Positions 2,668 through 49,731 of a stretch of DNA of 64,000 nt are shown here, piece by piece (position 1 is the first letter of the stretch; every line of letters starts with the position of its first letter). The translations under genes and the position numbers were made by a program. The notes under the pieces are model-generated. The model was not told the origin of the DNA and ran no database searches. It worked only from the letters and a program-made list of their open reading frames with translations. The stretch comes from Dehalococcoidia bacterium (GTDB lineage Bacteria > Chloroflexota > Dehalococcoidia > Bin125), in contig OZ241849.1 of NCBI GenBank assembly GCA_965203165.1, positions 2,766,861 to 2,830,860 of the forward strand, given 5' to 3'.

Positions 2668-3582
2668 GTGCGAACGATGAGCAGAGCGGCGCGGCTGATC
2701 GCGGCCGGCCTGATCGCCGCCTGGCTCGCGCTGCCGGCGCTGTTTGGGGCGGCCTGCGGCGGCGAGCCGGAAGGTCCGCTTGATCCCGACACGCTGATCC
2801 TGGCCACGACCACCAGCCTCAACGACAGCGGGCTGCTCGACGAGCTCGCGTCGCTCTTCGCGCAGGAGCAGGACGTAACGGTGAAGATCATCGCGGTGGG
2901 CACCGGCGCAGCGCTGCGGATGGGCGAGCAGGGCGACGCCGATGTGCTGCTGACGCACGCGCCGGACGCGGAGCGGGCATTGCTGGAGAACGGCGACGTG
3001 AGCGACCGCGTGCTGGTCGCCTACAACGATTTCGTGCTGATCGGCCCGGCAGACGACCCGGCCGGCGTGGCCGGGATGGACGACGCGGCGGCGGCGCTGG
3101 CGCGGATCAGCGAGGCGGGCCGGGCCGGCGGCGCGGCGTTCGCCTCGCGCGGCGACGACAGCGGCACGCACAAGAAGGAGCGCGCGCTGTGGCAGGCGAG
3201 CGGCGTCGAGCCGGGCGGGGAGTGGTATCTCGAAACCGGGCAGGGGATGGGTGGCACGCTCAACGTGGCGGACCAGCGCGAGGCTTACACCCTGGCCGAC
3301 CGCGGCACCTTCCTCGCGCTGAGCGGGCGACTCCAGCTGACCGTGCTGGTGCAAGGCGACGCGCGGTTGCTCAACTACTACAGCGTGATGCCCGTCGCCG
3401 CCGACAAGCGCGGCATCAACGCGGCGGCCGCGGCCGAGTGGGTGGAGTTTCTCACGCGGGGCGACATTCAGGCGCGGATCGGCGCGTATCGCCGCGTGGA
3501 GTACGGACGCTCGCTGTTCGTGCCGGCGGCGGGGGACAGCGAGGCGGCGATCGCCGCGCGGGGCGGCGCGCCGCGCGAGTAG
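2668..3582 (+). CDS. ABC transporter periplasmic oxyanion-binding protein, TupA-like (tungstate/molybdate class)
   Basis: Signal peptide/lipobox-like AACGG. The motif LATTTSLNDSGLLDEL resembles the TupA TTTS..SGL anion-binding motif. Followed by permease and ATPase genes. Confidence 0.7.
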   Translation: MRTMSRAARLIAAGLIAAWLALPALFGAACGGEPEGPLDPDTLILATTTSLNDSGLLDELASLFAQEQDVTVKIIAVGTGAALRMGEQGDADVLLTHAPDAERALLENGDVSDRVLVAYNDFVLIGPADDPAGVAGMDDAAAALARISEAGRAGGAAFASRGDDSGTHKKERALWQASGVEPGGEWYLETGQGMGGTLNVADQREAYTLADRGTFLALSGRLQLTVLVQGDARLLNYYSVMPVAADKRGINAAAAAEWVEFLTRGDIQARIGAYRRVEYGRSLFVPAAGDSEAAIAARGGAPRE

Positions 3583-3612
3583 CCTCGCAGGAGCAACCGG
3601 AGAGGCGGAGCC

Positions 3613-4308
3613 TTGGATCTGATCTGGGACGGGCTGCGCGAGGCGGCGCGGCTCTGGGCGCAGGGCGACGCGGAGGTGATCGCGATCACCCTGCGCACGC
3701 TGGCGATTTCGGCGGCGGCGACCGCGCTGGCGCTGGCGCTGGGCGTGCCGCTCGGCGCGCTGCTCGCGCTGCGCCGCTTCCCCGGACGCGGGCTGATTGT
3801 CGCCGCCGTCAACACCGGGCTGGGCATGCCGCCGGTCGTCGTGGGGCTGGTGATCGTGCTCTTGCTCTGGCGCAGCGGGCCGCTCGGCGCGCTCAACCTG
3901 ATCTACACGCCCTACGCGATGGTGGCGGCGCAGTTTCTGCTGGCGCTGCCGCTCGTGATCGGCTTTTCGCTCACCGCAATTCAGGCGCTGCCGTCGAAGC
4001 TGCTCGAGCAGATGCGCGCGCTGGGCGCGAACCGCGCGCAAATGCTCTGGCTGATCATGCGCGAGACGCGGCTGGGCGTGCTGGCCGCGGTGATGGCCGG
4101 CTTCGGCGCGGCCATTTCGGAAGTCGGCGCGTCGATGCAGGTGGGCGGCAACCTGGCCGGCGAGACGCGCGTGCTGACGACCGCGACAGTGCTGGAGACG
4201 AGCCGCGGCAACTTCGAGCTGGCAATTGCGCTGGGCCTGATCCTCGTGGTGATGGCCTACCTCGTGAATCTGGCGCTGACCACAGTGCAGCAGCGCCGCA
4301 CGGTCTGA
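3613..4308 (+). CDS. ABC transporter permease (TupB-like)
   Basis: 231 aa, multi-TM, binding-protein-dependent transport inner-membrane component pattern. Sits between the SBP and ATPase genes. TTG start. Confidence 0.75.
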   Translation: MDLIWDGLREAARLWAQGDAEVIAITLRTLAISAAATALALALGVPLGALLALRRFPGRGLIVAAVNTGLGMPPVVVGLVIVLLLWRSGPLGALNLIYTPYAMVAAQFLLALPLVIGFSLTAIQALPSKLLEQMRALGANRAQMLWLIMRETRLGVLAAVMAGFGAAISEVGASMQVGGNLAGETRVLTTATVLETSRGNFELAIALGLILVVMAYLVNLALTTVQQRRTV

Positions 4309-4326
4309 ACGGTCTGAGCGATCATC

Positions 4327-5448
4327 GTGTCCGACGCGCAGAGCGGCCCCCACCTGGAAATCCGCGATCTCGTCGTGGCGCGCGGCGGTCGCACGGTGCT
4401 TTCGATTCCTCAGCTGCGGCTGGGTCGGCGCGAGGTGACGGCGGTGATCGGTCCCAACGGGAGCGGCAAGAGCACGCTGCTGGCGGCGCTGCAACTGCTG
4501 CTGCCGCGCGAGCGGGGCGAGCTGCTGCTGGACGGCGCGCCGATCGACGGCGACCCCGTGATGGCGCGGCGGCGGATGGCGGCGGCGTTCCAGGAGCCGC
4601 TGCTGCTGAGTATGTCGGTGCGCGAGAACGTCGAGCTGCCGCTGCGCCTGCGCGGGGCGGGTCGGCGCGAGCGGCGCAAGGCGGCGGAGGAGTGGCTGGA
4701 GCGCTTCGGGATCGCGGCGCTGGCGCGGCGCGGCGCGCGCGCGCTGTCGGGCGGTGAAGCGCAGCGGGTCAGTCTGGCGCGGGCGTTCGCGGCGCGCCCC
4801 GAGCTGCTGCTGCTGGACGAGCCGTTCGCCGGGCTCGACGCGCCGACGCGGGCGCAGCTGCTGGAGGATTTCGCGCAGATTCTGGCCGAGGCGCGGCCGA
4901 CGACGCTGCTGGTCACCCACGACCGCGCCGAGGCCCTGCGCCTGGCCGACCGCGTGGCGGTGCTGATCGAGGGCCGACTGCGGCAGTGGGGCACGCCGGA
5001 CGAGGTGTTCAGCACGCCGGCCGACGAGCAGGTGGCGGCATTCGTAGGCGTGGAAAACGTCTGGCCGGGGCGCTTAATCGAAGAGCGCGAGGGCCTCGCA
5101 ATTTGGCGCTGCGGCCCGCTGACGGTCGAGACGGCCGCCATAACCGGCGCGGGCGCGGCGTTTCTCTGCGTCCGCCCGGAGCAGGTCACGCTTTCGACCG
5201 CCTGCCGCGCGGGGGATCCGTCGAGCGCCCGGAACCACGCGGCGGGGCGGATTGTGGGCGCGTACAGCGAGGGCGCGTTCATGCGGGTGACGCTGGAGGT
5301 AGAGGGCGGCGAGGGCGCGCGGGTAAGCGCGGATATCTCGCGCGTGTCGTGGGAGGAGTTGGCTCTGGCGGTAGGCCAGCGCGTGGAGGCGGCGTTCAAG
5401 GCGAGCGCGGTGCACGTAATCCCCCACAGCGAGGGCGGCGGGGGCTGA
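4327..5448 (+). CDS. ABC transporter ATP-binding protein with C-terminal TOBE-like domain
   Basis: Walker A GPNGSGKST, signature LSGGEAQRV, Walker B LLLLDEP. About 130-aa C-terminal extension as in ModC/WtpC-type ATPases. Confidence 0.85.
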   Translation: MSDAQSGPHLEIRDLVVARGGRTVLSIPQLRLGRREVTAVIGPNGSGKSTLLAALQLLLPRERGELLLDGAPIDGDPVMARRRMAAAFQEPLLLSMSVRENVELPLRLRGAGRRERRKAAEEWLERFGIAALARRGARALSGGEAQRVSLARAFAARPELLLLDEPFAGLDAPTRAQLLEDFAQILAEARPTTLLVTHDRAEALRLADRVAVLIEGRLRQWGTPDEVFSTPADEQVAAFVGVENVWPGRLIEEREGLAIWRCGPLTVETAAITGAGAAFLCVRPEQVTLSTACRAGDPSSARNHAAGRIVGAYSEGAFMRVTLEVEGGEGARVSADISRVSWEELALAVGQRVEAAFKASAVHVIPHSEGGGG

Positions 5449-11059: not shown

Positions 11060-11632
11060 AGATCCACCACCCGCGCCCCCGTCCGTCATACCCGCGCTCC
11101 CGTCCGTCATACCCGCGCCCCGTCCGTCATACCCGCGCCCCCGTCCGTCATACCCGCGCTCGCCGCGGGTATCTCGCCGCAGTGCGCACAAAGCCCCACC
11201 CCTGCCCCCGCGCCCCGTCCGTCATACCCGCGCCCCGTCCGTCATACCCGCGCTCGCCGCGGGTATCTCGCCGCAGTGCGCACAAAGCCCCGCCCCTGCC
11301 CCCGCGCTCCCGTCCGTCATACCCGCGCCCCCGTCCGTCATACCCGCGCCCCGTCCGTCATACCCGCGCTCGCCGCGGGTATCTCGCCGCAGTGCGCACA
11401 AAGCCCCATCCCTGCCCCCGCGCCCCGTCCGTCATACCCGCGCCCCGTCCGTCATACCCGCGCTCGCCGCGGGTATCTCGCCGCAGTGCGCACAAAGCCC
11501 CACCCCCGCCCCCGCGCCCCCGTCCGTCATACCCGCGCTCGCCGCGGGTATCTCGCCGCAGTACGCACAAAGCCCCACCCCTGCCCCCGCGCCCCGTCCG
11601 TCATACCCGCGCTCGCCGCGGGCATGACGGAT
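11060..11632. repeat. Family-1 palindromic repeat array
   Basis: At least 6 full units of CCGTCATACCCGCGCTCGCCGCGGGTATCTCGCCGCAGTGCGCACAAAGCCCC, each preceded by 1-3 half-sites CGTCCGTCATACCCGCGC. Confidence 0.9.
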
Positions 11633-12901: not shown

Positions 12902-14071
12902 ATGATCGAACCGGTCGCCGCTGTCGGACGGATGGGCACCGAAACGGCCTTCGAGGTGCTGGCGCGCGCCAACCAGCTCGCCGCCGAGGGCCGCAGCATC
13001 ATCAATCTGGGCATCGGGCAGCCTGATTTCGAGACCCCCGCCCACATCGTCGACGCGGGCCGCCAGGCGCTGACCGACGGGCGGCACGGCTACACCCCCG
13101 CCGCCGGCATTCCCGAGCTGCGCGAGGCGGTCGCCAACGATCTCGAGCGCCGCCACGGCGAGCGCGTCGATCCCGCCGCCGTGCTGATCACGCCCGGCGC
13201 GAAGCCGGTCATGTTCTGCACCATCCTGCTGATGGGCGAGCCCGGCGCGGAAATCCTCTACCCCAATCCGGGCTTCCCGATCTACGAGTCGCTGATTCGC
13301 TATTCGGGTGCGACGGCGGTGCCAATCGCGCTGCGCGAGCAGGACGGCTTCACGTTCGATCCTGAGCAGGTGCTGAGCCAGATCAACGAGCGCACCCGGC
13401 TGATCATCCTGAACAGCCCCGCCAACCCGACCGGCGGCGCGGCGACGCGAGAGCAGCTGGATCGGCTCGCCGCGGGGCTGGCCGAGTGGCCCGACGTCGT
13501 CGTGCTGAGCGACGAAATCTATTCCAACATCCTCTACGAGGGCCGCGAGCATGTCACGATGCTGCGCTACCCGGAGCTGCGCGACCGGCTGGTGCTGCTG
13601 GACGGCTGGAGCAAGACCTACGCGATGACCGGCTGGCGGCTGGGCTACGGCGTCTTCCCGCCCGCGCTCTTCGCGCACGCCGAGCGAATCGCGATCAACG
13701 CCTGGTCCTGCCCCAACGCCGCGACTCAGTATGCCGCCGTGGCCGCGCTTGAAGGCGATCAGTCGCCCGTCGCGCGGATGGTCGAGGCGTTCGACGAGCG
13801 CCGCCGGGTGATCGTCGCCGAGTTGAACGAGGTTCCCGGCGTCAGCTGCGTCGATCCGGCCGGCGCGTTCTACGCCTTCCCCAACATCAGCGAGACTGGC
13901 ATCGACGCACGCACGCTGCAGCGCCGTCTGCTCGACGAGGTCGGCCTGGCGGTGATCGCCGGCACCTCGTTCGGGCAGCTCGGCGAGGGCTACCTGCGCT
14001 TCTCCTACGCCGCCGGCCTCGACGAAATCCGCGAGGGCGTCAGCCGTATGCGCCGCCTGCTGGCCGGCTGA
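12902..14071 (+). CDS. PLP-dependent aminotransferase, class I/II (aspartate aminotransferase-like)
   Basis: INLGIGQPDF, NSPANPTG and SKTYAMTGWRLGY (PLP lysine) motifs. Confidence 0.85.
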   Translation: MIEPVAAVGRMGTETAFEVLARANQLAAEGRSIINLGIGQPDFETPAHIVDAGRQALTDGRHGYTPAAGIPELREAVANDLERRHGERVDPAAVLITPGAKPVMFCTILLMGEPGAEILYPNPGFPIYESLIRYSGATAVPIALREQDGFTFDPEQVLSQINERTRLIILNSPANPTGGAATREQLDRLAAGLAEWPDVVVLSDEIYSNILYEGREHVTMLRYPELRDRLVLLDGWSKTYAMTGWRLGYGVFPPALFAHAERIAINAWSCPNAATQYAAVAALEGDQSPVARMVEAFDERRRVIVAELNEVPGVSCVDPAGAFYAFPNISETGIDARTLQRRLLDEVGLAVIAGTSFGQLGEGYLRFSYAAGLDEIREGVSRMRRLLAG

Positions 14072-14094: not shown

Positions 14095-14577
14095 ATGAGC
14101 GACAGCTTCGAGTACATCTCGCGCAACCGTCTGGTACTGAAAGACGGCATGCGCCACGCCACGCTGGGCGACGTGCCCAAGCCGGTCGTCTACGGCGTGC
14201 AGGGCGCGCTCAAGGAGTACTACGGCGCGCCCGCCGACGCGCCGCCCGTGGCCGCCACGCTCGACCACATCGTCGCCGCGGTCGGCGGTTGAATGTACGG
14301 CACTCTCGCGCGGGCGTTGGCCGCGCGCAAGGTCGAATTCGATACCGCCGCCTACAGCGCCGATGTGCTGGGCACGATTCGCGGTGAGCGCAAGGAGACG
14401 ATTCGGATCACCGGCATTCACGTCGTCTTTCACATTCCCGGGGTGAGCGCGGAGCAGCGCGCCGCCGCCGAGCGCGCCGTGCAGTTCCACGCCGGCGGCT
14501 GCCCGGCGCACGAGAGCGTCAAGGACGCCATCGAGATCACCTGGGAGGCCGACTGGGCCGCCGCGCCGGCGCCGTAA
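14095..14577 (+). CDS. OsmC/Ohr-family peroxiredoxin-like protein with in-frame TGA (14290-14292) at the catalytic Cys position: possible selenoprotein, otherwise a pseudogene
   Basis: ORFs 14095..14292 and 14293..14577 share one frame. The joined 160-aa product reads ..LDHIVAAVGG-[TGA]-MYGTLARAL.. and retains the second family Cys (HAGGCPAHESV). A hairpin CGCGCGG-GCGTTGG-CCGCGCG lies at 14307-14327. Confidence 0.55.
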
Positions 14578-14954
14578 TGGATGCGCCCGACGGGCTGCGC
14601 TACTCCGACGACGACCTCTGGGTTGACGTCGAGGGTGCGCTGCGGCGCGTGGGCGTGACCGACTACGCGCAGGATCAGCTGGGCGAAATCGTCTACCTCG
14701 AGCTGCCCGAGCCGGGCGCGCCCGTCGCCGCAGGCGAGCCGTTCGGCGTGATCGAATCCGCCAAGGCGGTGATCGATCTGATCAGCCCGCTCAGCGGCGT
14801 GGTGCGGGAACGCAACGACGCTGCAATCGCCCAACCCACTCTGGTCAACGAACAGCCCTACGCCGGCGGTTGGCTGCTGCGCGTCGCGCCGGCGGGCGCG
14901 CTGCCGGCCGCCTTAATGCAGGCGGCGACGTACCGCGCGCTGCGCGCCGAGTAG
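14577..14954 (+). CDS. gcvH: Glycine cleavage system H protein
   Basis: GVTDYAQDQLGEIVYLELP and lipoyl-lysine motif VIESAKAV. The start overlaps the preceding stop (TAATG). Confidence 0.9.
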   Translation: MDAPDGLRYSDDDLWVDVEGALRRVGVTDYAQDQLGEIVYLELPEPGAPVAAGEPFGVIESAKAVIDLISPLSGVVRERNDAAIAQPTLVNEQPYAGGWLLRVAPAGALPAALMQAATYRALRAE

Positions 14955-15218: not shown

Positions 15219-15944
15219 GTGCTCGACTACACCGCGCTGGAGTTCCCCGACCCGCCCGCCGACCGCCCCTACACGGCGATCAACATGGTGATGTCCGCCG
15301 ACGGCCATACGACCGTCGAGGGCTCCGAACGCGGGCTGGGCTCCGAAACCGATCAACGGCTGATGCGCGAGCTGCGCGTGCATTTCGACGTGGTGCTCAA
15401 CGGCGCGGGGACCTTTCGCGCCTCCGGCACGTCGGCCCGCCTCAACCGCCCCGAACTCGAGCAGTGGCGAACCGAACGCGGCATGCCGCCCTCACCGATC
15501 GCCGCCGTGCTGACCCGCTCCGGCGACCTGCCGCCCGAGCGCCGCTTCTTCACCGACCGCAGCTTCGACGCCGTCGTCTACCTCTCCAGCGCCGCCTCTC
15601 CCAACGCCCGCAAGCGCCTCGCCGCGCTGGGACGCCCCGTCATAGAAGTCCCGGCGGGCGCGGAGGTCAAGGCCGCCTTCCAACACATGCGCGAGCACCT
15701 GGGCGCGCAGCGCGTGCTGGTCGAAGGCGGCGCAACCCTCAACGGCGCAATCATCCAGGCCGGCCTGGCCGACGAGTTCTTCCTAACGCTCGCCCCAAAA
15801 ATCACAGGCGGCCCCGACCAAACCCCCGCCGTCCAATGGCCCGCCCCCGCCTCCCGCAGCGCCCTGCAACAGCTGAACCTAATCCAGGCCCACACCGATC
15901 CCCAAACCAACGAACTCTTCCTCCGCTACAAATTCAGCGCATAG
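15219..15944 (+). CDS. RibD C-terminal domain / dihydrofolate-reductase-like reductase
   Basis: PYTAINMVMSADGHTT..GSE.GLGSETD..LMRELR...DVVLNGAGT and RVLVEGGATLNG are typical of the RibD_C family. GTG start. Confidence 0.75.
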   Translation: MLDYTALEFPDPPADRPYTAINMVMSADGHTTVEGSERGLGSETDQRLMRELRVHFDVVLNGAGTFRASGTSARLNRPELEQWRTERGMPPSPIAAVLTRSGDLPPERRFFTDRSFDAVVYLSSAASPNARKRLAALGRPVIEVPAGAEVKAAFQHMREHLGAQRVLVEGGATLNGAIIQAGLADEFFLTLAPKITGGPDQTPAVQWPAPASRSALQQLNLIQAHTDPQTNELFLRYKFSA

Positions 15945-16025: not shown

Positions 16026-16825
16026 ATCCGTCATAGCGCGGGAGCAACTCCGTCATACCCGCGGGAGCAACTCCGTCATACCCGCGCACAACAATAGATC
16101 CGTCATACCCGCGCTTGCCGCGGGTATCTCGCCGCGGTGCGCACCAAGTCCGTTCCCGCCGCCCAACCCCCGCGCGCTCCCTTTCCGTCATACCCGCGGG
16201 AGCAACTCCGTCATACCCGCGCACAACATTAGATCCGTCATACCCGCGCTTGCCGCGGGTATCTCGCCGCGGTGCGCACCAAGTCCGTTCCCGCCGCCCA
16301 ACCCCCGCGCGCTCCCTTTCCGTCATACCCGCGCTTGCCGCGGGTATCTCGCCGCGGTGCGCACCAAGTCCGTTCCCGCCGCCCAACCCCCGCGCGCTCC
16401 CTTTCCGTCATACCCGCGCTTGCCGCGGGTATCTCGCCGCGGTGCGCACCAAGTCCGTTCCCGCCGCCCAACCCCCACGCGCTCCCTTTCCGTCATACCC
16501 GCGCTTGCCGCGGGTATCTCGCCGCGGTGCGCACCAAGTCCGTTCCCGCCGCCCAACCCCCGCGCGCTCCCTTTCCGTCATACCCGCGCTTGCCGCGGGT
16601 ATCTCGCCGCGGTGCGCACCAAGTCCGTTCCCGCCGCCCAACCCGCGCGCTCCCTTTCCGTCATACCCCGCACAACATTAGATCCGTCATACCCGCGCTT
16701 GCCGCGGGTATCTCGCCGCGGTGCGCACCAAGTCCGTTCCCGCCGCCCAACCCCCGCGCGCTCCCTTTCCGTCATACCCGCGGGAGCAACTCCGTCATAC
16801 CCGCGCTTGCCGCAGGTATGACGGA
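16026..16825. repeat. Family-1 palindromic repeat array including a regular 85-bp tandem block
   Basis: CCGTCATACCCGCGCTTGCCGCGGGT starts at 16235, 16320, 16405, 16490 and 16575, an exact 85-bp period. Further copies lie near 16100 and 16684, with a degenerate reverse copy at 16803-16825. Confidence 0.95.
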
Positions 16826-17886: not shown

Positions 17887-19533
17887 ATGAAGAGCGACGA
17901 GTTGCACGAGCGGATCGATGCGGTGGCGCCGCTGGGCTCGGCGGTGCAGCCGAGCTCGGCCGAGTTCCGCGCCAACGCGGAGTGGATGCGCGGCCTGGTC
18001 GCCGAGCTGCGCGAGCGCGAGGCGGCCGCGCGCGCGGGCGGCGGCGAACGCGCCGTCGAGCGCCACCACGCGCGCGGCAAGCTGCTCGCCCGCGAGCGCA
18101 TCGAGCGCCTGCTCGACCCCGCATCGCCCTTCCTCGAACTCAGCCCGCTCGCCGCGACGGGGATGTACCACGACGAAGCGCCCGGCGCGGGCATTGTCAG
18201 CGGCATCGGCCGCGTGGCGGGGCGCGAGATCGCGATCATCGCCAACGACGCCACCGTCAAGGGCGGTTCCTACTACCCGATCACGGTGAAGAAGCATCTC
18301 CGCGCGCAGGAGATTGCGGAGCAAAACCAGCTGCCCTGCATCTACCTCGTCGACTCCGGCGGCGCGTTCCTGCCGATGCAGGCCGAGGTGTTTCCCGACC
18401 GCGACCACTTCGGGCGCATCTTCTTCAACCAGGCGCGGATGTCCGCGCAGGGCATCCCCCAGATCGCCGCCGTGATGGGCTCCTGCACGGCGGGCGGCGC
18501 CTACGTCCCCGCAATGAGCGACGAGGCGATCATCGTCGACGGCGTCGGCACGATCTTCCTCGGCGGCCCGCCGCTCGTCCGCGCCGCCACCGGCGAAGAG
18601 ATCTCGGCTGAAGACCTCGGCGGTGGCATCGTTCACAGCCAGGTCTCCGGCGTTGCCGACCATCTCGCCGGCGACGACGCGCACGCGCTCGAGCTGGTCC
18701 GCGCCGCGGTCGACTCGCTGGGCGCAAGCCCGCCGCCCGCGCCCTGGACCCGCGCCGAGATCGAAGAGCCGCTGCACGACCCCGAAGAGCTTTACGGCGT
18801 CGTGCCCCAATCGACCCGCCACAGCTACGACGTGCGGGAAGTGATCGCCCGCCTGGTCGACGGCTCGCGCCTGCACGAGTTCAAGCCCTCCTGGGGCGCC
18901 ACGCTCGTCTGCGGCTTCGCCCGCCTGCTCGGCTACCCCGTGGGCATCGTGGCCAACAACGGCATCCTCTTCTCCGAGAGCGCGCTCAAGGGCGCGCATT
19001 TCATCCAACTCTGCGCGCGCCGCAAGATCCCGCTCGTCTTCCTGCAAAACATCACCGGCTTCATGGTCGGGCGGCGCTACGAGCACGAGGGCATCGCCAA
19101 GCACGGCGCGAAGATGGTCACCGCTGTGGCCTGCGCCGCCGTGCCCAAATTCAGCGTCGTGCTGGGCGGCTCCTTCGGCGCGGGCAACTACGCGATGTGC
19201 GGGCGCGCCTACAGCCCGCGCCTGCTCTGGGGCTGGCCCAACGCCCGCGTCTCCGTGATGGGCGGCGAGCAGGCCGCCAATGTGCTGCTCACGATCCGAC
19301 TCGACAACCTGCGCGCGCGCGGCGAAGAAATGACCGCCGACGAGCAGGCCGAATTCATGGCGCCCACGCTCGAAAAGTACGAGCAGGAGGGCTCCGCTTG
19401 GTACAGCACCGCCCGCATCTGGGACGACGGCATTCTCGACCCGCTCGACACCCGCACCGCGCTCGGCGTCGGCATCGCCGCCTCGCTCAACGCGCCGATT
19501 CCCGACTCCCAGTTCGGCGTCTTCCGGATGTAG
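17887..19533 (+). CDS. Acyl-CoA carboxylase carboxyltransferase beta subunit (methylcrotonyl-CoA carboxylase beta-like)
   Basis: [74 protein letters not shown]. Start at ATG 17887 (ORF opens at 17821). Confidence 0.9.
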
Positions 19534-19595: not shown

Positions 19596-22148
19596 ATGCC
19601 CTACCTGCCGGCGCTCGACGGCATTCGCGCGCTCGCCGTGCTGGCCGTGGTGATCTTCCACACCAGCGAAGCCTGGCTCTCCGCCGGCTTCCTCGGCGTC
19701 GATGTCTTTTTCGTCGTCAGCGGCTTCCTGATCACCGCGCTGCTCGTCGCCGAGCGCGAGCGGGCCGGCCGCGTCGACCTGCGCGCTTTCTGGATCCGCC
19801 GCGCGCGGCGCTTGCTGCCCGCCCTCGCGTTCGTCCTCGCCGCCACCACCGTCTACGCCGTTCTCCTGCTCGGCGACCAACTGCTCACTCACCTCCGCGA
19901 GGTGTTCGCCGCCGTCGTCTACGTCACCAACTGGGACCTGATCCTGCGCGATGTCTCCTATTTCGAGTCGTTCGACCGCCCCTCGCAGCTGCGCCATCTC
20001 TGGTCGCTCGCCGTCGAGGAGCAGTTCTATCTGCTCTGGCCGCTGGTGTTCGTGGGGCTCTCGCGCTTCCTCTCGCGCCGCCTGGTGCTGGCGATCGTGC
20101 TGCTGTTGGCGGCGGCCTCGCTGGTCTGGATGATCCGGCTCTACACGCCCGGCGAAGACCCCTCGCGCGTCTACTTCGGCAGCGACCCGCGCGCCTTCAC
20201 CATTCTGATCGGCGTCGCGCTCGGCCTCGTCTGGCGGCCCTGGCGCTGGCAGTGGCCCGAGCAGCGCCGCCTGCCCTGCCGACTGCTCGACCTGATCGGA
20301 CTCGCCGGTCTCGCCGCCGTCGTGCTGATCATGCAGCAGGGCCACTGGCGCGAAGCCTGGCTCTACCCGTGGGGACTGCTCGGCGCGTCCGTCGCCTCCG
20401 CCGCGCTGATCGCCGCCGTCGCCCGCCGCCGCTGGGTACTCGGTCGGGCGTTGGGCGCGGGACCGCTGCGCTGGCTCGGCACCCGCTCCTACGGCGTCTA
20501 CCTCTGGCACTGGCCGGTGTTGCTCGCGCTCAGCTTCGAGCTCGACCTCAGCGGCGTCGCGCTGTTCGCCGCCGGCGCGCCGATCAGCGCCGCCCTCGCG
20601 GAAGTCAGCTACCGCTGGGTCGAGACGCCGATCCGGCGCGGCGAGTTCCGCCTGCGGCTGCTCCCGCCGCGCGCCCAGACCGCCGCCGTGTCGGCGGCCG
20701 CGGCGGCCGTCTTCGCCGCCGCCATCGTCGGCATCGTCCTGATCGATGCCGACGATTCCTCCGCGCTGGAGAATTTCGCCGTGGTGATCGATGCCGAGGA
20801 CGCCGCGGCGGCCGAAGCGGCCGAACCAGAGTCGTCGTTCATCGCCGCCGCCGCGCCTGAAACTGAGGCAGACGCAGACTCCGACGACCCGCCCCCGCTG
20901 ATCATCTCCGGCGCGGACGACGACTCAGCTGAGTCTGCGGAGGATGATCATGCGGCCGAGATTCGGCGCCGCTGGCAGCTGCCCAAGGCGCGCCGCGCTG
21001 ATGTCGAGCCGCCTGCGCGGGCCGACTCCGGCTCCGACTCCGCACCGCCAGGGCAGGCTGCTTCGGATTCTGCGGGCGACGCCTTGGCGGCGGTCGATAT
21101 GGACGCGGGGATCGGCCCTGAGATCGGCCCTGAGATCGGCCCTGAGATCGCGCCGGCCACCGCCTTTGAGTTCGGGCTGCTTGTGCTCCCGTCGGAGCTG
21201 GAGCGGGGCGGCGGCTCCGAGCCGCTGGCGGAGCCGCCCCTGTTCAGCTACGAGGTGCGCGCGGGCGACTCGCCGCATCGGATCGCCAGGACCTTCGGCA
21301 CGACCGCAGAGCGGCTGGTGGAGCTCAACGGGGAGGAGATCATGGAGGTTGTCCATGCCGGCGACTTGGTGGTTGTGCCTTGCCCGGACCGGATGCCCTG
21401 CGCGGTGATCGAGATTGCTACGCGCGGGCCGGGCTGCGTGAGTTGGAGCAGCCGGCTCGGTGAGGAGCGGGTCTGCCGCGGCGTGGGGGCGCTGATCGGC
21501 CTGCCGGCGGCTTTTGCCGCGGAAGGTGGGCTGCTGGCCTCACCGACCGTCTGGGAGTGGGGCGGCAGGAGCGTGCAGTCGGACACATTCGAGCTCAGGC
21601 CGGGCGATGTCGACGGCAGCGGCGATCCGCTGATTGTGCGCTTCGGGATCGCGCCGCTGGCGATCGGCGACTCGGTGATGGTCGGGGCCGCCCGCATGTT
21701 GAGCGAGCGCGGCCTCGACGTCGACGCCGTCGGCGCGCGCAGCGCGCACAGCAGCATGCGGGCGCTGGAGCGCCATCTCGCCGACGGTCCCCGCGAGGCC
21801 GTCGTTTTTCACGGTGTGGGCTACGAATTCGTGGACGAGGAGGATTTTGAGCGGCTGATGCGCATCGTCGAAAACGTCGACCACCTGATCGTGCTGACTC
21901 GTCAGTTCCCGCAGCGCGATCCCTGGATTCGCCTGGAGCGCGACGGCAACCGAATGCTGCGCGAGGGCGCGGCGCGATACGCCAAGGTGACGTTGATCGA
22001 CTGGCATCAGGTGACTGACGGGCGCGAAGATGAGCTGACCTACGATGGGACGCACCTGCGGCCGGCCGGTCTCCAGATTTACGTGCAGATGATTGTGGAA
22101 GCGATTGAGGCGGGGCCTTCGGGGGGTGTGGGGCGCGCGCCGGAGTAG
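19596..22148 (+). CDS. Acyltransferase-3 (OafA-like) membrane protein with LysM and C-terminal SGNH-like domain
   Basis: MPYLPALDGIRALAVLAVVIFH plus a multi-TM region. LysM-like YEVRAGDSPHRIARTFGTTAERLVELNG. C-terminal GDSVM...DGTHL (SGNH Ser and Asp/His). Alternative GTG start at 19539. Confidence 0.8.
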   Translation: MPYLPALDGIRALAVLAVVIFHTSEAWLSAGFLGVDVFFVVSGFLITALLVAERERAGRVDLRAFWIRRARRLLPALAFVLAATTVYAVLLLGDQLLTHLREVFAAVVYVTNWDLILRDVSYFESFDRPSQLRHLWSLAVEEQFYLLWPLVFVGLSRFLSRRLVLAIVLLLAAASLVWMIRLYTPGEDPSRVYFGSDPRAFTILIGVALGLVWRPWRWQWPEQRRLPCRLLDLIGLAGLAAVVLIMQQGHWREAWLYPWGLLGASVASAALIAAVARRRWVLGRALGAGPLRWLGTRSYGVYLWHWPVLLALSFELDLSGVALFAAGAPISAALAEVSYRWVETPIRRGEFRLRLLPPRAQTAAVSAAAAAVFAAAIVGIVLIDADDSSALENFAVVIDAEDAAAAEAAEPESSFIAAAAPETEADADSDDPPPLIISGADDDSAESAEDDHAAEIRRRWQLPKARRADVEPPARADSGSDSAPPGQAASDSAGDALAAVDMDAGIGPEIGPEIGPEIAPATAFEFGLLVLPSELERGGGSEPLAEPPLFSYEVRAGDSPHRIARTFGTTAERLVELNGEEIMEVVHAGDLVVVPCPDRMPCAVIEIATRGPGCVSWSSRLGEERVCRGVGALIGLPAAFAAEGGLLASPTVWEWGGRSVQSDTFELRPGDVDGSGDPLIVRFGIAPLAIGDSVMVGAARMLSERGLDVDAVGARSAHSSMRALERHLADGPREAVVFHGVGYEFVDEEDFERLMRIVENVDHLIVLTRQFPQRDPWIRLERDGNRMLREGAARYAKVTLIDWHQVTDGREDELTYDGTHLRPAGLQIYVQMIVEAIEAGPSGGVGRAPE

Positions 22149-37326: not shown

Positions 37327-40077
37327 CTACCAATACTGGCGGCGCTTGCCGCGCTTGCCGTCGCGCCGCCACTCTTGGGGCTCGGCGGCGCGCTCCACGG
37401 CGACGGCGCAGACCTTGTATTCGGGGATGCGCGCTTCGGCGTCGTAGACATTGTTGGTCAGCCAGTTGGCGGCGCTCTCCTGCAGGCGGACGAACGGGAC
37501 GAAGATCGAGCCGGGCGCCACATCGTCGGTGACGAAGGCGACGCCTTCGAGTCGGCCGCGGCGCGACGCCACCTGCAGCGCTTCGCCGGAGCGCACTTCG
37601 ATTCGCGCGGCGTCCTGCGGGTGAATTGCGACGCGCAGCTCGGGCCAGCTGTCGACCAGCCCGTCGACGCGGCGGGTGATTGTGCCGCCGTGCCAGTGAT
37701 AGAGCACGCGCCCGGTGTTGAGCACGAAGGGGTAGCGCTCGTCGGGCGCTTCCTCGCTGGGCGCGGTCTGCCGTACGGGGATGAAGCGGCCTTTGCCGCG
37801 GGGAAACTCCTCGCCGTAGAGCCGCGGCGTGCCGGGATGATCGCCGTCGGGGCAGGGCCACTGGATGCCGCCTTCGGCGTCGAGCCGCGCGTGCGAGAGG
37901 CCGCCCAGAATCGGCGTGAGCGCGGCCATCTCATCAAAGACCGAGGCCGCGCTGTCGTGATCGAAGCCGGCCACCGAGAGTCCCAGCCGGGCCGCGCTGC
38001 GCCGGGCGAGCTCCTGCACGATTTGCCAGTCGGGGCGCGACTCGCCGATCGGCTCGATCACTTTGCGGACGCGCTGCACGCGGCGTTCGGAGTTGGTGAA
38101 GGTGCCCTCTTTTTCGGCGAACGAGGCGGCGGGCAGCACGATGTCGGCCAGCTCGGCGGTCTCGTGCAGGAAGATGTCCTGCACGACGAGGAAGTCGAGC
38201 CGCTCGATCGCCTCGCGGGCGTGCGCCAGATTGGGCTCGGTCAGCAGCGGGTTCTCGCCGACGATGTACATGCAGCGGATGCCGCCCTCAAGGATCGATT
38301 CGACCATGTCGGTGGCGCGCAGCCCTTCTTCGGCGGGCAGCGGTGCGCCCCAGGCCGCGCCGAAGCGGGCGAGCACATCGGGGACAAAGCGCTGATAGCC
38401 GGGCAGCGCGTCGGGGACGCAGCCGGCGTCGCCCGCGCCCTGCACGTTGTTTTGCCCGCGCAGCGGGGAGACGCCGTTGCCGACCCGCCCGACCTGGCCG
38501 GTCAACAGCGCGAGGTTGAGCAGCGCGGTCGCGTTGGCCGTGCCGTTGGTGTGCTGGGTGACGCCCATCCCCCAGATCAGGCAGGAGCCGCCGCCGGCCT
38601 CGCCCAGCGGGCGGGCGTAGGTGCGGGCGGCGCGGCGCAGCAGCTCGGCGGGCACGCCGGAGATCTGCTCAACCCGCTCGGCGTCGTACTCGTCCAGCGC
38701 CGCGCGCCAGGCCTCGTAGCCCTCGGTGCGCGCCGCGATGAACGATTCGTCCGCCAGCCCCTCGTCGAGGATCACCCGCGCCATCCCGTTGAGCACGGCC
38801 ACATCCGTGCCGGGGTACTGGCGCAGCCAGAGGTCGGCGTGGTCGCAGAGCTCGATTCGTTTGGGGTTGAGCACGATCAGCGCCGCCCCGCGCTCGTCAA
38901 TCGCGCGGCGCATGCGGCTGGCGGCGACGGGGTGATTCGAGGAGGGGTCCGCGCCGACCACGAAGAGGCAGTCGGCGGCTTCGTAGTCGCTGTAGGAGTT
39001 GGAGGTCGCGCCGCTGCCCAGCTGCGCGAGCATCGCCTCGACCGAAGGCGAGTGGCAGAGCCGCGTGCAGTGGTCGATGTTGTTGGTCGCCATCACCGCG
39101 CGGACCAGCTTTTGCAGCAGGTAGTTGTCCTCGTTGGTCGCTTTGGCGCTGGAGAACGCGCCGAACGCGCCGCGGTGCTCGGCGAACTTCTCCGCCGCGA
39201 GGTCCAGCGCTTCGTCCCAGGATGCCGGCTCGAGGCGGCCCGACGAGCGGCGAATCAGCGGCCGGGTGAGGCGGTCGGAGTGGTTGACGAAGGCCGTGCC
39301 GAAGCGTCCCTTGACGCAGAGCAGCCCCAGCGACGAGCGGTTCTGCGGGTCGTCGTCGACATGGACGAGTTGGCCGTTCTCGGCGGTGACGCGGATGCCG
39401 CAGCCGACGCCGCAGTAGGGGCAGACGGTGGAGACGGTGCGCGGCCCGGCCGCGCCGCGCTTGCCGACCAGCGCGTCGGTCGGGCAGGCAGCGACGCAGG
39501 ATCCGCAGGAGGTGCAGGTCGATTCGCCCAGCGGGTCGTCGTTGAACGCGGCGATCCGCGCGGCCTTGCCCAGCCCGGCGATGCCAATCGCGCCGATGTG
39601 CTGGCGGTCGCTGCAGGCCGAAGTGCAGCGCCCGCAGAGGATGCACTGCGAGGCGTCGAAGCGGTAAAAGTGGTTGCTCTCGTCGAGCGTCGGATTGGTT
39701 CGGGCGCGCCAGCGCGCGGGGTCGGCCTCGTGCGCCTCTGCGTGATGCCGCAGCTCGTTGTCGCCGAGCGGCTGTGCGTCGTCGCGCATCGCCAGGGTCA
39801 GTTCGAGGATGCCGCGCCGCGCGGCCACGGCGGCCTCGCTGTCGGTGCGGATCGCCAGCCCGTCGCGCAGCGGCGTAGAGCAGGCCGCGGGCAGCCCGCG
39901 CGCGCCCTCAATCTCAATCAAGCAGGTGCGGCACGCGCCGAGGGCGGGCCCGTCGGGGTCTTTGCAGAGGTGCGGCAGGTCGATGCCGGCGTCGAGCACC
40001 GCATCCAGCGCGGAGCAGTCGGGCGCGGCCTGGATGGTCCGTCCGTTGATGGTGATCGAGACGCTGTCCGCAGCCAT
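37327..40077 (-). CDS. fdhA: Formate dehydrogenase alpha subunit, NAD-dependent type (N-terminal 2Fe-2S/4Fe-4S, molybdopterin domain)
   Basis: N-terminus ITINGRTIQAAP...LPHLC, CILCGRCTSAC and CTSCGSCVAACP clusters. Mo/W-bisPGD core with Cys at the Sec/Cys position (DHCTRLCHSPSV). ATG 40077 follows GGAGG. Confidence 0.9.
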   Translation of the reverse strand: MAADSVSITINGRTIQAAPDCSALDAVLDAGIDLPHLCKDPDGPALGACRTCLIEIEGARGLPAACSTPLRDGLAIRTDSEAAVAARRGILELTLAMRDDAQPLGDNELRHHAEAHEADPARWRARTNPTLDESNHFYRFDASQCILCGRCTSACSDRQHIGAIGIAGLGKAARIAAFNDDPLGESTCTSCGSCVAACPTDALVGKRGAAGPRTVSTVCPYCGVGCGIRVTAENGQLVHVDDDPQNRSSLGLLCVKGRFGTAFVNHSDRLTRPLIRRSSGRLEPASWDEALDLAAEKFAEHRGAFGAFSSAKATNEDNYLLQKLVRAVMATNNIDHCTRLCHSPSVEAMLAQLGSGATSNSYSDYEAADCLFVVGADPSSNHPVAASRMRRAIDERGAALIVLNPKRIELCDHADLWLRQYPGTDVAVLNGMARVILDEGLADESFIAARTEGYEAWRAALDEYDAERVEQISGVPAELLRRAARTYARPLGEAGGGSCLIWGMGVTQHTNGTANATALLNLALLTGQVGRVGNGVSPLRGQNNVQGAGDAGCVPDALPGYQRFVPDVLARFGAAWGAPLPAEEGLRATDMVESILEGGIRCMYIVGENPLLTEPNLAHAREAIERLDFLVVQDIFLHETAELADIVLPAASFAEKEGTFTNSERRVQRVRKVIEPIGESRPDWQIVQELARRSAARLGLSVAGFDHDSAASVFDEMAALTPILGGLSHARLDAEGGIQWPCPDGDHPGTPRLYGEEFPRGKGRFIPVRQTAPSEEAPDERYPFVLNTGRVLYHWHGGTITRRVDGLVDSWPELRVAIHPQDAARIEVRSGEALQVASRRGRLEGVAFVTDDVAPGSIFVPFVRLQESAANWLTNNVYDAEARIPEYKVCAVAVERAAEPQEWRRDGKRGKRRQYW

Positions 40078-40117
40078 CGCCGCCCTCCACGCCTCCGATG
40101 GTATCCCAGCTCGCAAC

Positions 40118-40447
40118 AACTCCGTCACACCCGCGCCCCCACCTCCGTCATACCCGCGCCTCCACCTCCGTCACACCCGCGCTCCACCTCCGCCATACCC
40201 GCGCGAGCAAGATCCGTCATACCCGCGCTCGCCGCGGGTATCTCGGCGAGTTCTGCACGGAGCCGCGCCTCCGCCGTTTCTGCGCGGACACTCGCGCCGC
40301 GCAACGTTCCGCCCCGGATGTCCGGCGGTGCTCGGATGGCGCTTGCTCAGAAGTGGCGGGCGGGGACGGTGCTTGGTGATCAGCGCGGCGAGATACCCGC
40401 GGCGAGCGCGGGTATGACGGATCTTGCTCTCGCGGGTATGGCGGCGG
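40118..40447. repeat. Family-1 repeats including complete MITE-like unit 40214..40420
   Basis: Left end CCGTCATACCCGCGCTCGCCGCGGGTATCTCGGCG. Right end CGGCGAGATACCCGCGGCGAGCGCGGGTATGACGG. 207 bp. Confidence 0.85.
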
Positions 40448-47255: not shown

Positions 47256-47815
47256 GTTCCTGCCTGCGCAGGAATGACGGGGGAGGGCGCAGGAATGACG
47301 GGTGGAGGGGCGCAGGTTCCTGCCTGCGCAGGAATGACGGAGGGGGGGCGCGGGAATGACGGAGGGCGGGGGGTTGGTGGGGTGCGTGTTGGCGGCGTGG
47401 CGTGGGGTTGGTGCTGGTTCGTTGCCTCCCACCCCCCACCTAACCTCCCCCCTGGTAGGGGGGAGGGATGAATTGGGGAGGAGGTGAGGGGGTTGGGAGA
47501 TGTGTGAGGCGGGTGGGTTCCTGCCTGCGCAGGAATGACGGGGAGGGGCGCAGGTATGACGGAGGGGGGAAGCGCGGTGGGTTCCTGCCTGCGCAGGAAT
47601 GACGGGATGGGGGCGCGGGAATGACGGAGGGCGGGGGGTTGGTGGGGTGCGTGTTGGCGGCGTGGCGTGGGGTTGGTGCTGGTTCGTTGCCTCCCACCCC
47701 CCACCTAACCTCCCCCCTGGTAGGGGGGAGGGATGAATTGGGGAGGGGGAGGGAGCGGGAGATGTGTGAGGCGGGTGGGTTCCTGCCTACGCAGGAATGA
47801 CGGATAGGGGCGCAG
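47256..47815. repeat. Tandem ~262-265 bp unit (2 copies plus a partial) built from family-2 hairpins and a G/C-tract hairpin
   Basis: GGTTCC hairpins at 47255, 47315, 47516, 47580 and 47778. About 130 bp are identical at 47350-47480 and 47613-47745, including CCTCCCCCC-TGGTA-GGGGGGAGG at 47444-47466 and 47709-47731. Confidence 0.9.
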
Positions 47816-48861
47816 GCTTTAGGCTGTGGGGCGTGTCTGACGCGAACGGCCGCGGGGCGCTCCGCTATGGGGTGCTGCAATTCTTCTCCTGGCCGGGGCG
47901 GCGCGTGCCTTTGCCGACCGTCTACGAGCGGGCGTTGCAGCGGATCGATGTGATGGACGAGACGGGCTACGACTGCGTCTGGCTGGCCGAGCACCACTTC
48001 AACACCTACAGCGTCTGCCCCTCGGTGCATCTGATGGGCATGCACGTGGCGGGGCGCACGCAGAACATTCGGATCGGCACGGCGGTCACGCTGGCCTCGT
48101 TCTACCACCCGCTGCGGATCGCCGAGGAGGTGGCGCTGCTCGATGTGCTCTCGGGCGGGCGGGTCAATTGGGGCGCGGGGCGCGGCTTCGACCAGACCGA
48201 GTTTCGCGCGTTCGACGTGCCGGTCGAGGAGTCCTATCCGCGCTTCCGCGAGAGCGTGCAGATCGTGCTCGAGGCCTGGCGCAACGAGCGCGTGACCTGG
48301 CACGGCGACTACTACGATTTCGACGAGATCGAGGTGCTGCCCAAGCCGCAGCAGCAGCCGACGCCGCCCTTCTGGGTCGCCGCCGGCTCGGACGACGCGC
48401 TCGACTGGGCGGGCGAGCAGGGCTACTCGATCCTGATGGATCCGCACGCGGCGCACGCCGAGATCGGCGAGAAGCGGCGCCGCTACATCCGCGCGCTGGA
48501 GAATGCCGGTCACACGCTTGAGGGCCGCACGCTGCCGATGGCGCGGCTGATCGCCGTCGCCGAAACAGACGCCGAGGCCGAAGCGATCGCCCGCAACGGG
48601 GCGCAGTGGACGGTCGGCTCCTACGGCGCCGGCAGCAAGGTGCGGAAGGTCGGCGTCGCCCCGCGCGACGACGCCGGGCGCGGCGTGGATCCGGTGCAGC
48701 GCTACGTCGACGATGTCGTGATTCACGGCTCGGCGAGCAAAGTGGCGGACACGATCGCCGAGCTGCGCGAGACGATCGCGCTGGACTACCTGATCATCGC
48801 GCCCTTCTCGCACGACTCGTTCGTGCGCTTCACCAACGACGTGCTGCCCAGAATCGCCTGA
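47797..48861 (+). CDS. LLM-class (luciferase-like) flavin-dependent oxidoreductase
   Basis: YDCVWLAEHHF and RIGTAVTLASFYHPLRIAEEVALLDVLSGGRVNWGAGRG. ATG 47797 lies inside a repeat unit, so the true start may be GTG 47833. Confidence 0.8.
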   Translation: MTDRGAGFRLWGVSDANGRGALRYGVLQFFSWPGRRVPLPTVYERALQRIDVMDETGYDCVWLAEHHFNTYSVCPSVHLMGMHVAGRTQNIRIGTAVTLASFYHPLRIAEEVALLDVLSGGRVNWGAGRGFDQTEFRAFDVPVEESYPRFRESVQIVLEAWRNERVTWHGDYYDFDEIEVLPKPQQQPTPPFWVAAGSDDALDWAGEQGYSILMDPHAAHAEIGEKRRRYIRALENAGHTLEGRTLPMARLIAVAETDAEAEAIARNGAQWTVGSYGAGSKVRKVGVAPRDDAGRGVDPVQRYVDDVVIHGSASKVADTIAELRETIALDYLIIAPFSHDSFVRFTNDVLPRIA

Positions 48862-48876
48862 CGAACGGAGTACCGC

Positions 48877-49731
48877 ATGGCCTACGAATTCATCACCCTG
48901 GAGCGCAAAGGCAACCACGACGGCATCGCCTGGCTCGAGCTGAACCGCCCGGAGAAGCTCAACGCGCTCACCTTCCCGCTGCTCGAGGAGCTGTACGACG
49001 CGCTGACGACGCTGCGGATGGATCGCACCGCGCGGGTGCTGGTGATCACGGGCAAGGGGCGCGGTTTCTGCGCGGGGATGGATCACGCCGGCGCGGGGCG
49101 CGGCCAGACCGATTTCTGGGATCGCAACCCCGACCCGCTGGTCGGCTCGCCCGCGCCGCAGGGGCACGTCGACAACGAGGGCGGGCGGCTCAACTTCCGC
49201 TACGAGACGAAGACCTTCGCCGAGCTGCGGCGGTTGGACATCCCGGTGATCGCCGGGGTCAACGGCGCTTGCGTGGGGGCCGGTTTCGACATGGCCTGCC
49301 TCGCCGACCTCGCGGTGGCCTCGACCAGCGCGCGCTACCAGGTGGCCTATGTCAAGCGCGGGCTCTACGCGGACCTGGGCGGCTTCTGGGCGATCCCCAA
49401 GATCATCGGCTGGCGCAAGGCGATGGAGATGATGTTCACGGGGCGCTTCATGAGCGCGGAGGAGGGCCACGAAGCGGGCGTGAGCAACTACCTCGTGCCG
49501 GCCGAGGATTTCGAGCAGCGGCTGCTGGAGTTCGCCGAGGAGGTGGAGGCGGGCCCGCCGATCGGCCAGAAGGTGGGCAAGCTGATGGCCTACCGCACGG
49601 CCAACCTGGACTACGAGAGCGCGCTCGAAATCTCCGGCGCGGTGCTGCCGCTGGTGCAGGAGTCGTTCGACCGGATCGAGGGGGTGCAGAGTTTCGTCGA
49701 GCGGCGCGAGCCCAAGTTCTCCGGGTTCTAG
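48877..49731 (+). CDS. Enoyl-CoA hydratase/isomerase (crotonase) family protein
   Basis: IAWLELNRPEKLNAL, VITGKGRGFCAGMD and AGVNGACVGAGFDMA. Confidence 0.85.
   Translation: MAYEFITLERKGNHDGIAWLELNRPEKLNALTFPLLEELYDALTTLRMDRTARVLVITGKGRGFCAGMDHAGAGRGQTDFWDRNPDPLVGSPAPQGHVDNEGGRLNFRYETKTFAELRRLDIPVIAGVNGACVGAGFDMACLADLAVASTSARYQVAYVKRGLYADLGGFWAIPKIIGWRKAMEMMFTGRFMSAEEGHEAGVSNYLVPAEDFEQRLLEFAEEVEAGPPIGQKVGKLMAYRTANLDYESALEISGAVLPLVQESFDRIEGVQSFVERREPKFSGF

Follow-up and report, generated by a model that had tools for sequence, protein, structure and literature searches.

Within a 64,000-nucleotide stretch of contig OZ241849.1 from a Dehalococcoidia bacterium (the window, in which all positions below are counted unless another locus is named), two short open reading frames (ORFs), 14095-14292 and 14293-14577, lie in one frame and are parted solely by the TGA at 14290-14292. 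The question raised by this locus is whether that TGA ends one small gene and a second begins directly after it, or whether a single gene of the OsmC/Ohr family runs through it with selenocysteine (Sec, U) at the codon. The comparative evidence given below favours the latter: we conclude, with a probability of roughly 0.9, that 14095-14577 is one OsmC-type gene whose internal UGA encodes Sec at the catalytic site. The features of the gene, as read or predicted from the sequence, are as follows.

14095-14577, forward strand: putative OsmC/Ohr-fold selenoprotein gene, 160 amino acids, currently called as ORFs of 65 and 94 amino acids
14082-14087, forward strand: Shine-Dalgarno sequence AAGGAG, 7 nucleotides (nt) 5' of the ATG of the full gene, read from the sequence
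14152-14154, forward strand: codon of Arg20, which does not vary within the family and may be the catalytic Arg; located at the beta1-beta2 turn (Ohr-type position)
14263-14265, forward strand: codon of Asp57, invariant, 9 residues before Sec, aligned with E. coli OsmC Glu50, with a putative catalytic role
14290-14292, forward strand: UGA that probably encodes selenocysteine (Sec66) where the peroxidatic Cys would stand, judged from its conservation and the alignment of the Cys column
14307-14328, forward strand: core of a stem-loop resembling a selenocysteine insertion sequence (SECIS), with a GC stem of 7-8 bp and the loop GCGUUGG, or GUUG plus a bulged G, from RNA folding
14291-14340, forward strand: longer hairpin predicted by folding, with the GA of the UGA in its base; the lower stems are predicted only
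14500-14502, forward strand: TGC codon of Cys136 in GGCPAHES, the putative resolving Cys, aligned with E. coli OsmC Cys125 (AGCPVSQ)

From the ATG at 14095 the frame passes through the TGA at 14290-14292 and a second ATG at 14293, and closes with the TAA at 14575-14577. The joined product of 65 + 1 + 94 = 160 amino acids reads ..IVAAVGG-*-MYGTLA.. across the TGA and ..GGCPAHES.. further on, in agreement with the coordinates and translation of the two ORFs given in a preliminary description of this DNA. Assignment of the joined product to the OsmC family, also proposed there, was borne out by a match to Pfam OsmC (PF02566) of 39.1 bits against a cutoff of 27.5, covering residues 57-151. The second Cys of the family is retained, as had been noted, and it aligns with Cys125 of OsmC. 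U66 and C136 are 70 residues apart and both columns are conserved, with U standing for the first Cys.

Conservation of the TGA was determined by scanning one genome per GTDB species. A relative was found in 232 genomes, and the best 80 of the 232 were examined. Whether orthologues carry TGA or TGC at this codon had been raised as a check on the preliminary description; all 80 species genomes have TGA here, each preceded by an N-terminal half that is conserved in frame, and across all sources the figure is 85 of 87. The copies that depart from this are a TGT form (P0005), which is one nucleotide from TGA and retains a hairpin of the Rokubacteria type, and a CGA copy in a frameshifted gene. The latter (P0063; L086, 10001-10399) has CGA (Arg) for TGA and frameshifts at both gene ends, and is either a decaying copy or the product of an error-prone long-read assembly. 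An orthologue at another locus (L058) has an extra in-frame stop in its N-terminal half (VYAV*GELKEYYG) where all others have Gln, which most likely reflects pseudogene formation or a read error in that metagenome-assembled genome (MAG). Most of the 80 loci come from Dehalococcoidia and other Chloroflexota MAGs, with three from Bacillota/Clostridia, four from Rokubacteria/Methylomirabilia, one from Ktedonobacteraceae and one from Anaerolineaceae; the isolate names of some of these MAGs suggest sponge metagenomes.

The stop codon that ends the gene is variable (TAG in 36, TGA in 27, TAA in 12). If the internal stop followed terminal-stop usage, the probability that all would be TGA is about 4e-5 for even 10 independent lineages. 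Third codon positions hold 57% of the differences among members in the N-terminal half and 52% in the C-terminal half, a pattern that points to strong purifying selection on both halves of the gene. In a protein search nearly all matches were C-terminal halves starting MYGTL or N-terminal halves ending ..AAV(A/G)G, which is the signature of a gene split by gene callers at a conserved stop; where the matches are named, they are called "OsmC family protein" or "hypothetical protein". For the C-terminal half, the exact protein sequence has entries in 42 assembly-collection blocks, and the same split into 65 and 94 amino acids was seen in each of the four places examined. One relative, on the 3.42-Mb chromosome of a Dehalococcoidia MAG (L001, OZ241913.1), is 99% identical to the window gene and probably belongs to the same species.

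The TGA falls at the catalytic position of the family. When 1.84 billion representatives were searched exhaustively with a profile, 675 relatives were recovered, and the 38 full-length ones were compared at the TGA column, where Cys occurs in 33, Trp in two, and Gly, Asp and Ser in one each. In P0128 the Trp proved to be a TGA translated with another genetic code, and the Trp of P0004 is presumably likewise a TGA. The second Cys is conserved in 34 of the 38. When aligned with hhalign in global or low-mact mode, the TGA column was placed on Cys59 of E. coli OsmC and Cys47 of YhfA, with low confidence in that region, where the local motifs AAHAAC, MAAGGC and AAVGG-U are concordant; default hhalign runs against E. 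coli OsmC and YhfA, like single-sequence and profile searches of the PDB, aligned the C-terminal part alone. Cys136 aligned firmly with OsmC Cys125. By BLASTP, the TGA column also coincides with the U of a published OsmC-like selenoprotein from the Sargasso Sea, AACY01145085. The placement of the TGA at the peroxidatic Cys, as first proposed from inspection of the sequence, therefore stands. One detail of that proposal has to be corrected: the AGC motif cited for the peroxidatic Cys surrounds the second Cys (Cys125, KAGCPV), and Cys59 sits in HAAC-FS. Since the TGA aligns with Cys59, the conclusion holds despite this slip.

An AlphaFold model was obtained for the natural TGT (Cys) variant P0005, with a mean predicted local distance difference test score of 73.9 and strands at residues 5-16 and 19-24. 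All 27 PDB matches of this model at E <= 0.001 are OsmC/Ohr-family structures, with 1QWI at the top (template modelling score 0.56-0.63), and the predicted fold of the joined protein is thus that of OsmC/Ohr. A catalytic Arg and Glu have been described for Ohr/OsmC (PMC5384416). By the strands of the model, Arg20 lies near the beta1-beta2 turn, an Ohr-like position; in a low-confidence alignment, Asp57 lies opposite OsmC Glu50, being Asp and not the canonical Glu; by analogy, these two residues may occupy the places of the catalytic pair.

Directly after the TGA lies a hairpin, found exactly as the preliminary description had it: CGCGCGG (14307-14313), GCGTTGG (14314-14320) and CCGCGCG (14321-14327) form stem, loop and stem 14 nt past the TGA. 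RNAfold preferred a near-equivalent pairing of 8 bp at 14308-14328, with a bulged G and a GUUG loop at 14316-14319, within a longer stem. The extended hairpin of about 50 nt has a predicted energy of -22.1 kcal/mol (z = -2.26 against dinucleotide shuffles, of which 4 of 200 folded equally well), and its apical loop starts 22-25 nt after the UGA. Because the lower-stem sequence is also fixed by conserved codons, it is beyond covariation testing.

A hairpin was present just after the UGA in all 81 sequences that were folded, in every clade. Its stem is GC-rich and 7-12 bp long in most of them, with its start between +13 and +23 in nearly all. The apical loop measures 3-5 nt in 80; it opens between +24 and +30 in 79, most often at +27 (47 sequences). 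A G lies within it in 75 and is its first base in 55. The peptides encoded by the stem differ by clade (LARALAAR, LAGALRAR, LRRALDAR, LRGALAGR) and the register slides by 2-6 nt, with the position kept. Compared with shuffles of synonymous codons within each gene, this segment folded more stably in 68 of 76 sequences (mean z -1.55), and for 21 representatives of less than 85% identity the mean z was -1.2 (Wilcoxon p = 2e-4 against synonymous-codon shuffles). The hairpin segment is typically among the 3% most stable stretches of its gene. The TGT copy P0005 was considered as a Cys-form control and dropped because its conversion is too recent, the hairpin still being there, and older Cys forms were taken instead. 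Six such relatives showed no stability excess (mean z -0.34), and the TGA forms were more stable than these (Mann-Whitney p = 0.002). Among 17 sequences sharing the +22 to +40 register, 89.7% of cells pair versus 80.3% in shuffles, and two base pairs swap G-C for C-G. Taken from sequence comparison, these results are signs of selection at the RNA level; we regard the hairpin evidence as real, moderate and supportive, not as decisive alone. The hairpin fits the qualitative description of the bacterial SECIS in PMC1088965. Like the SECIS of the E. coli fdhF type, it is a stem-loop in the coding region just past the UGA, with a small apical loop that usually contains a G; unlike it, it shares no sequence similarity, and its helix register slides between clades.

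Components of the Sec-decoding machinery were found near one orthologue. In a Rokubacteria MAG (L080), the OsmC-like TGA gene is followed at a distance of 8-10 kb by a tRNA-Sec (18552-18649; Rfam RF01852, 69.7 bits) and by the beginning of selA (20040-20252); the end of an rRNA operon (23S/5S) is found at the start of the same locus. For Chloroflexi, a tRNA-Sec with an 8/4 acceptor/T-stem form is reported. Reports of Sec use also exist for this phylum (PMC1794560, PMC5389517), and 46-49 selenoproteins have been described for Dehalococcoidia MAGs (PMC13326102). TGA serves as an ordinary stop in the window, for example in the aminotransferase gene immediately upstream, so there is no general reassignment of the genetic code. 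Two candidates from the window were rejected: a SelB-like tblastn match at 1419-1847 is CysN beside CysD, not SelB, and the TGA at 48859-48861, considered as a second Sec codon, is the ordinary stop of a luciferase-like monooxygenase gene (47797-48861). The gene that follows the latter is enoyl-CoA hydratase-like and starts at 48877 in the same frame. This is the only other tidy same-frame TGA of the window.

Several observations weigh against reading the UGA as Sec. The hairpin is encoded in an Ala/Arg/Gly-rich helix in a genome of 68% GC (the value for the window), where GC hairpins arise easily, and even its synonymous shuffles reach about -13 kcal/mol. The z-scores of single sequences are modest, eight of the 76 sequences lack a stability excess, and the helix register varies between clades. 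The compensatory swaps probably reflect only about two events. No covariation signal was found in the window's own clade, where the stem is almost invariant and hence uninformative, and no Rfam match was obtained for the hairpin at gathering or permissive thresholds, a result that is uninformative in that it means no curated family at threshold. None of selA, selB, selD and tRNA-Sec was found in the 64-kb window, which is the part of the genome that was searched; the tRNAs called there by ARAGORN and Rfam are tRNA-Thr and tRNA-Ala only. A scan for in-frame TGA codons across the window and 1.58 Mb of related flanks brought up no second selenoprotein gene; apart from the stop at 48859-48861 it gave only off-frame shadow ORFs. 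The formate dehydrogenase of the window is of the Cys type, as the preliminary description had cautioned: the FdsA/FdhA-type alpha subunit of 933 amino acids encoded at 37327-40128 on the minus strand contains HCTRLCHSPSV, in which a Cys takes the place that Sec has in selenium-dependent enzymes. The gene of a GcvH-type protein proposed below as a redox partner adjoins the OsmC-like gene in a limited number of loci (16 of 80), and other neighbours are not conserved. Lastly, an ATG stands next to the TGA in 80 of 80 loci.

This last point, together with the fact that gene callers already annotate two ORFs, would suit a split gene, in which the UGA ends a peptide of 65 amino acids, the adjacent ATG (TGA-ATG) restarts translation of a peptide of 94, and the pieces assemble without the first catalytic residue. 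The Gly codons before the TGA even give a weak Shine-Dalgarno-like GGCGG, the only such sequence upstream of ATG 14293, where nothing comparable with the AAGGAG of the full gene was found. A stop in a split gene should drift, yet this one is always TGA while the terminal stop varies, and the break would fall on the conserved catalytic Cys and delete it. Met also follows Cys in the closest Cys forms (CMHGT, CMYET, CMYGT), which makes the ATG a feature of the protein and not a restart signal, and an independent low-GC TGA lineage (L092, described below) has CTG after the TGA. A split gene would further leave the downstream hairpin and the tRNA-Sec and selA of L080 without explanation. We give this arrangement very little credence.

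It could also be supposed that the UGA is recoded to another amino acid, such as Cys or Trp, by a suppressor or a SelB-like system, leaving the protein without selenium. The site tolerates Cys in relatives, the search for Sec machinery around this gene covers the window, which has none, and the FdhA encoded there has Cys. Such recoding is hard to reconcile with TGA being the normal stop of neighbouring genes, and the site-specific, hairpin-linked pattern is the classical signature of Sec; a genuine tRNA-Sec and selA occur in at least one member genome, and Dehalococcoidia rich in selenoproteins are on record (PMC13326102). Recoding to another amino acid is, in our judgement, highly improbable. 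A nonsense mutation, pseudogene or sequencing error, to which the call of two short ORFs and the few degraded relatives (L086 with frameshifts, L058 with an extra stop) might point, is excluded to within a negligible probability by the TGA in 80 of 80 species of several phyla, recovered in many independent assemblies, and by the strong purifying selection on both sides of it.

If the UGA at 14290-14292 is accordingly not taken as a stop and encodes Sec, the stem-loop at 14307-14328, which starts 14-15 nt downstream, would act as a bacterial SECIS and recruit SelB carrying Sec-tRNA(Sec); Sec66 would be inserted, and translation would run on to the TAA at 14575. We infer recognition of the SECIS by SelB, and actual insertion of selenium, in this organism. 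By analogy with Ohr/OsmC (PMC5384416), Sec66 would attack an organic hydroperoxide and be converted to a selenenic acid, which would condense with Cys136 (in GCPAH) to a selenenylsulfide that is then reduced by a dithiol. The most plausible reductant would be the lipoyl arm of a GcvH-type protein, whose gene follows directly. The two genes flanking the OsmC-like gene are listed here.

14577-14954, forward strand: GcvH-type lipoyl carrier, candidate reductant; its start overlaps the stop of the OsmC-like gene (TAATG)
12902-14071, forward strand: class I/II aminotransferase, directly 5' of the OsmC-like gene and closed by an ordinary TGA

The GcvH-type protein scored 124.7 with NF002270 (cutoff 117) and 115.6 with TIGR00527, just below the cutoff of 115.85, and carries the lipoyl-lysine motif ESAKA. 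The loci in which its gene adjoins the OsmC-like gene are spread over two diverged clades, and no other recurrent partner was found in the diverged-clade neighbourhoods. From this gene adjacency, GcvH is a plausible electron donor. Lipoyl proteins are known reductants of Ohr/OsmC (PMC5384416), and a pairing of OsmC with an H-protein has been proposed in Trichomonas (cited in PMC5384416). In Trichomonas vaginalis, which has an incomplete glycine cleavage system with lipoylated H and L proteins, an OsmC peroxidase likewise has a GcvH-type protein as its possible donor. That system differs in being Cys-based and eukaryotic, whereas the link in the window is one of adjacency, in the 16 of 80 loci. 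The aminotransferase gene adjoins in 43 of the 80 loci, all of the window's clade. A gene for a reductase with a RibD_C domain (15219-15944 in the window) follows the OsmC-like gene at a short distance in 41 of the 43 loci of this clade. A RibD_C gene also adjoins a distant Cys-form relative (P0127; L095, 1500-2360), and it may be a second recurrent neighbour.

Some further features of the window were observed. A block of tandem and nested repeats occupies 16027-16819, its best array (16234-16668) having a period of 85 nt and 5.1 copies that are 98% identical; ORF translations suggest related repeat units near 4410-4500 and 11432-11600. On near-identical contigs (L087-L090), a Macro-domain and DarT pair (a DarTG toxin-antitoxin system) is found at the site of the repeat block, between the RibD_C and NHL/SGL genes, and the exchange of repeat block and DarTG pair is a strain-level insertion/deletion polymorphism. 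The CysD and CysN sulfate adenylyltransferase genes lie at 367-1362 and 1365-2663 and are followed by an ATP-binding cassette transporter at 2668-5448; the counterpart ATPase in L090 has TOBE domains, suggesting a transporter of the molybdate/tungstate type. The tRNA-Thr call (3490-3569) falls inside the ORF of a binding protein and is putative.

OsmC-like selenoproteins are not new in themselves. Three such sequences, assigned to COG1765 and bearing the motif UxxT, were reported from the Sargasso Sea in 2005 (PMC1088965; Zhang, Fomenko & Gladyshev), which bears out the preliminary description's mention of Sec-containing OsmC-like proteins in marine metagenome surveys. Later reviews list OsmC-like selenoproteins, and a curated model exists in NCBIfam (NF041052, "OsmC-related (seleno)protein", OsmC_like_Se). 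With this model, whose cutoff is 95 bits, the window protein scored 22.1 and Sargasso AACY01145085 scored 157.4. The two proteins have in common the fold, the Sec column and the second Cys (BLASTP aligns both), a hairpin past the UGA, and a similar length. Their identity is 26%, and the motif is U-M-Y-G-T in the window protein, with Thr at +4, versus the published UxxT (U-L-L-T in AACY01145085). The region before U is also distinct, with 65 residues and a conserved F-E-Y-I-S...VVYGVQG in the window protein and 39 residues in the Sargasso protein. The hosts of the window's clade are mainly Chloroflexota/Dehalococcoidia, and its retrieved members are almost exclusively of the Sec form. Since its score falls below the NF041052 cutoff, the window gene belongs, judging by its sequence, to a separate and so far unannotated OsmC subfamily, with Sec at the same position as in the NF041052 family.

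E. coli OsmC (PDB 1QWI/1NYE) and Ohr are the top structural matches, and they share with the window protein two redox residues about 60-70 positions apart, the GCP motif falling on Cys125 and the TGA on Cys59; their known reductants are lipoyl groups (PMC5384416). Unlike these proteins, the window protein has Sec for the peroxidatic Cys and an N-terminal extension of about 20 extra residues, and matches too weakly for the OsmC and Ohr subfamily models. Its conserved acid is Asp, not Glu, and its conserved Arg appears to lie at the Ohr-type, not the OsmC-type, position.

A second, independent TGA lineage was observed in an organism of 38% GC (P0128; L092, 211-669). It reads ..AIGG-TGA-CTG.. (U-L-T-G-T) and has a hairpin of 4 bp with the loop CTTGA at +28 to +32. 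Together, L092 and the NF041052 family suggest repeated conversion of Cys to Sec at the catalytic column.

These elements can be combined into a broader proposal, which we put forward tentatively and regard as doubtful as a whole. In this proposal, at least 232 species genomes would carry a distinct and almost obligately Sec-dependent branch of OsmC/Ohr, which would have its centre in Dehalococcoidia (sponge-associated MAGs among them) and would apparently have been transferred to Bacillota and Rokubacteria; public databases would systematically mis-annotate it as two ORFs. The lineage of the window would possess a selenium-dependent lipoyl peroxidase module with a dedicated GcvH-type protein. 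With NF041052 and L092 included, the change from Cys to Sec at this one catalytic position of the OsmC fold would have taken place on three or more separate occasions.

The finding reveals no new mechanism. It would correct the annotation of a gene that is now split into a nameless ORF of 65 amino acids and a truncated "OsmC family protein", with relatives in at least 232 species genomes, and whose subfamily is missed by the curated selenoprotein model. It also suggests a redox pairing with a GcvH-type lipoyl protein. For the Dehalococcoidia and other Chloroflexota it would add a widely distributed selenoprotein, and for the OsmC family a further case in which the peroxidatic Cys has been replaced by Sec.

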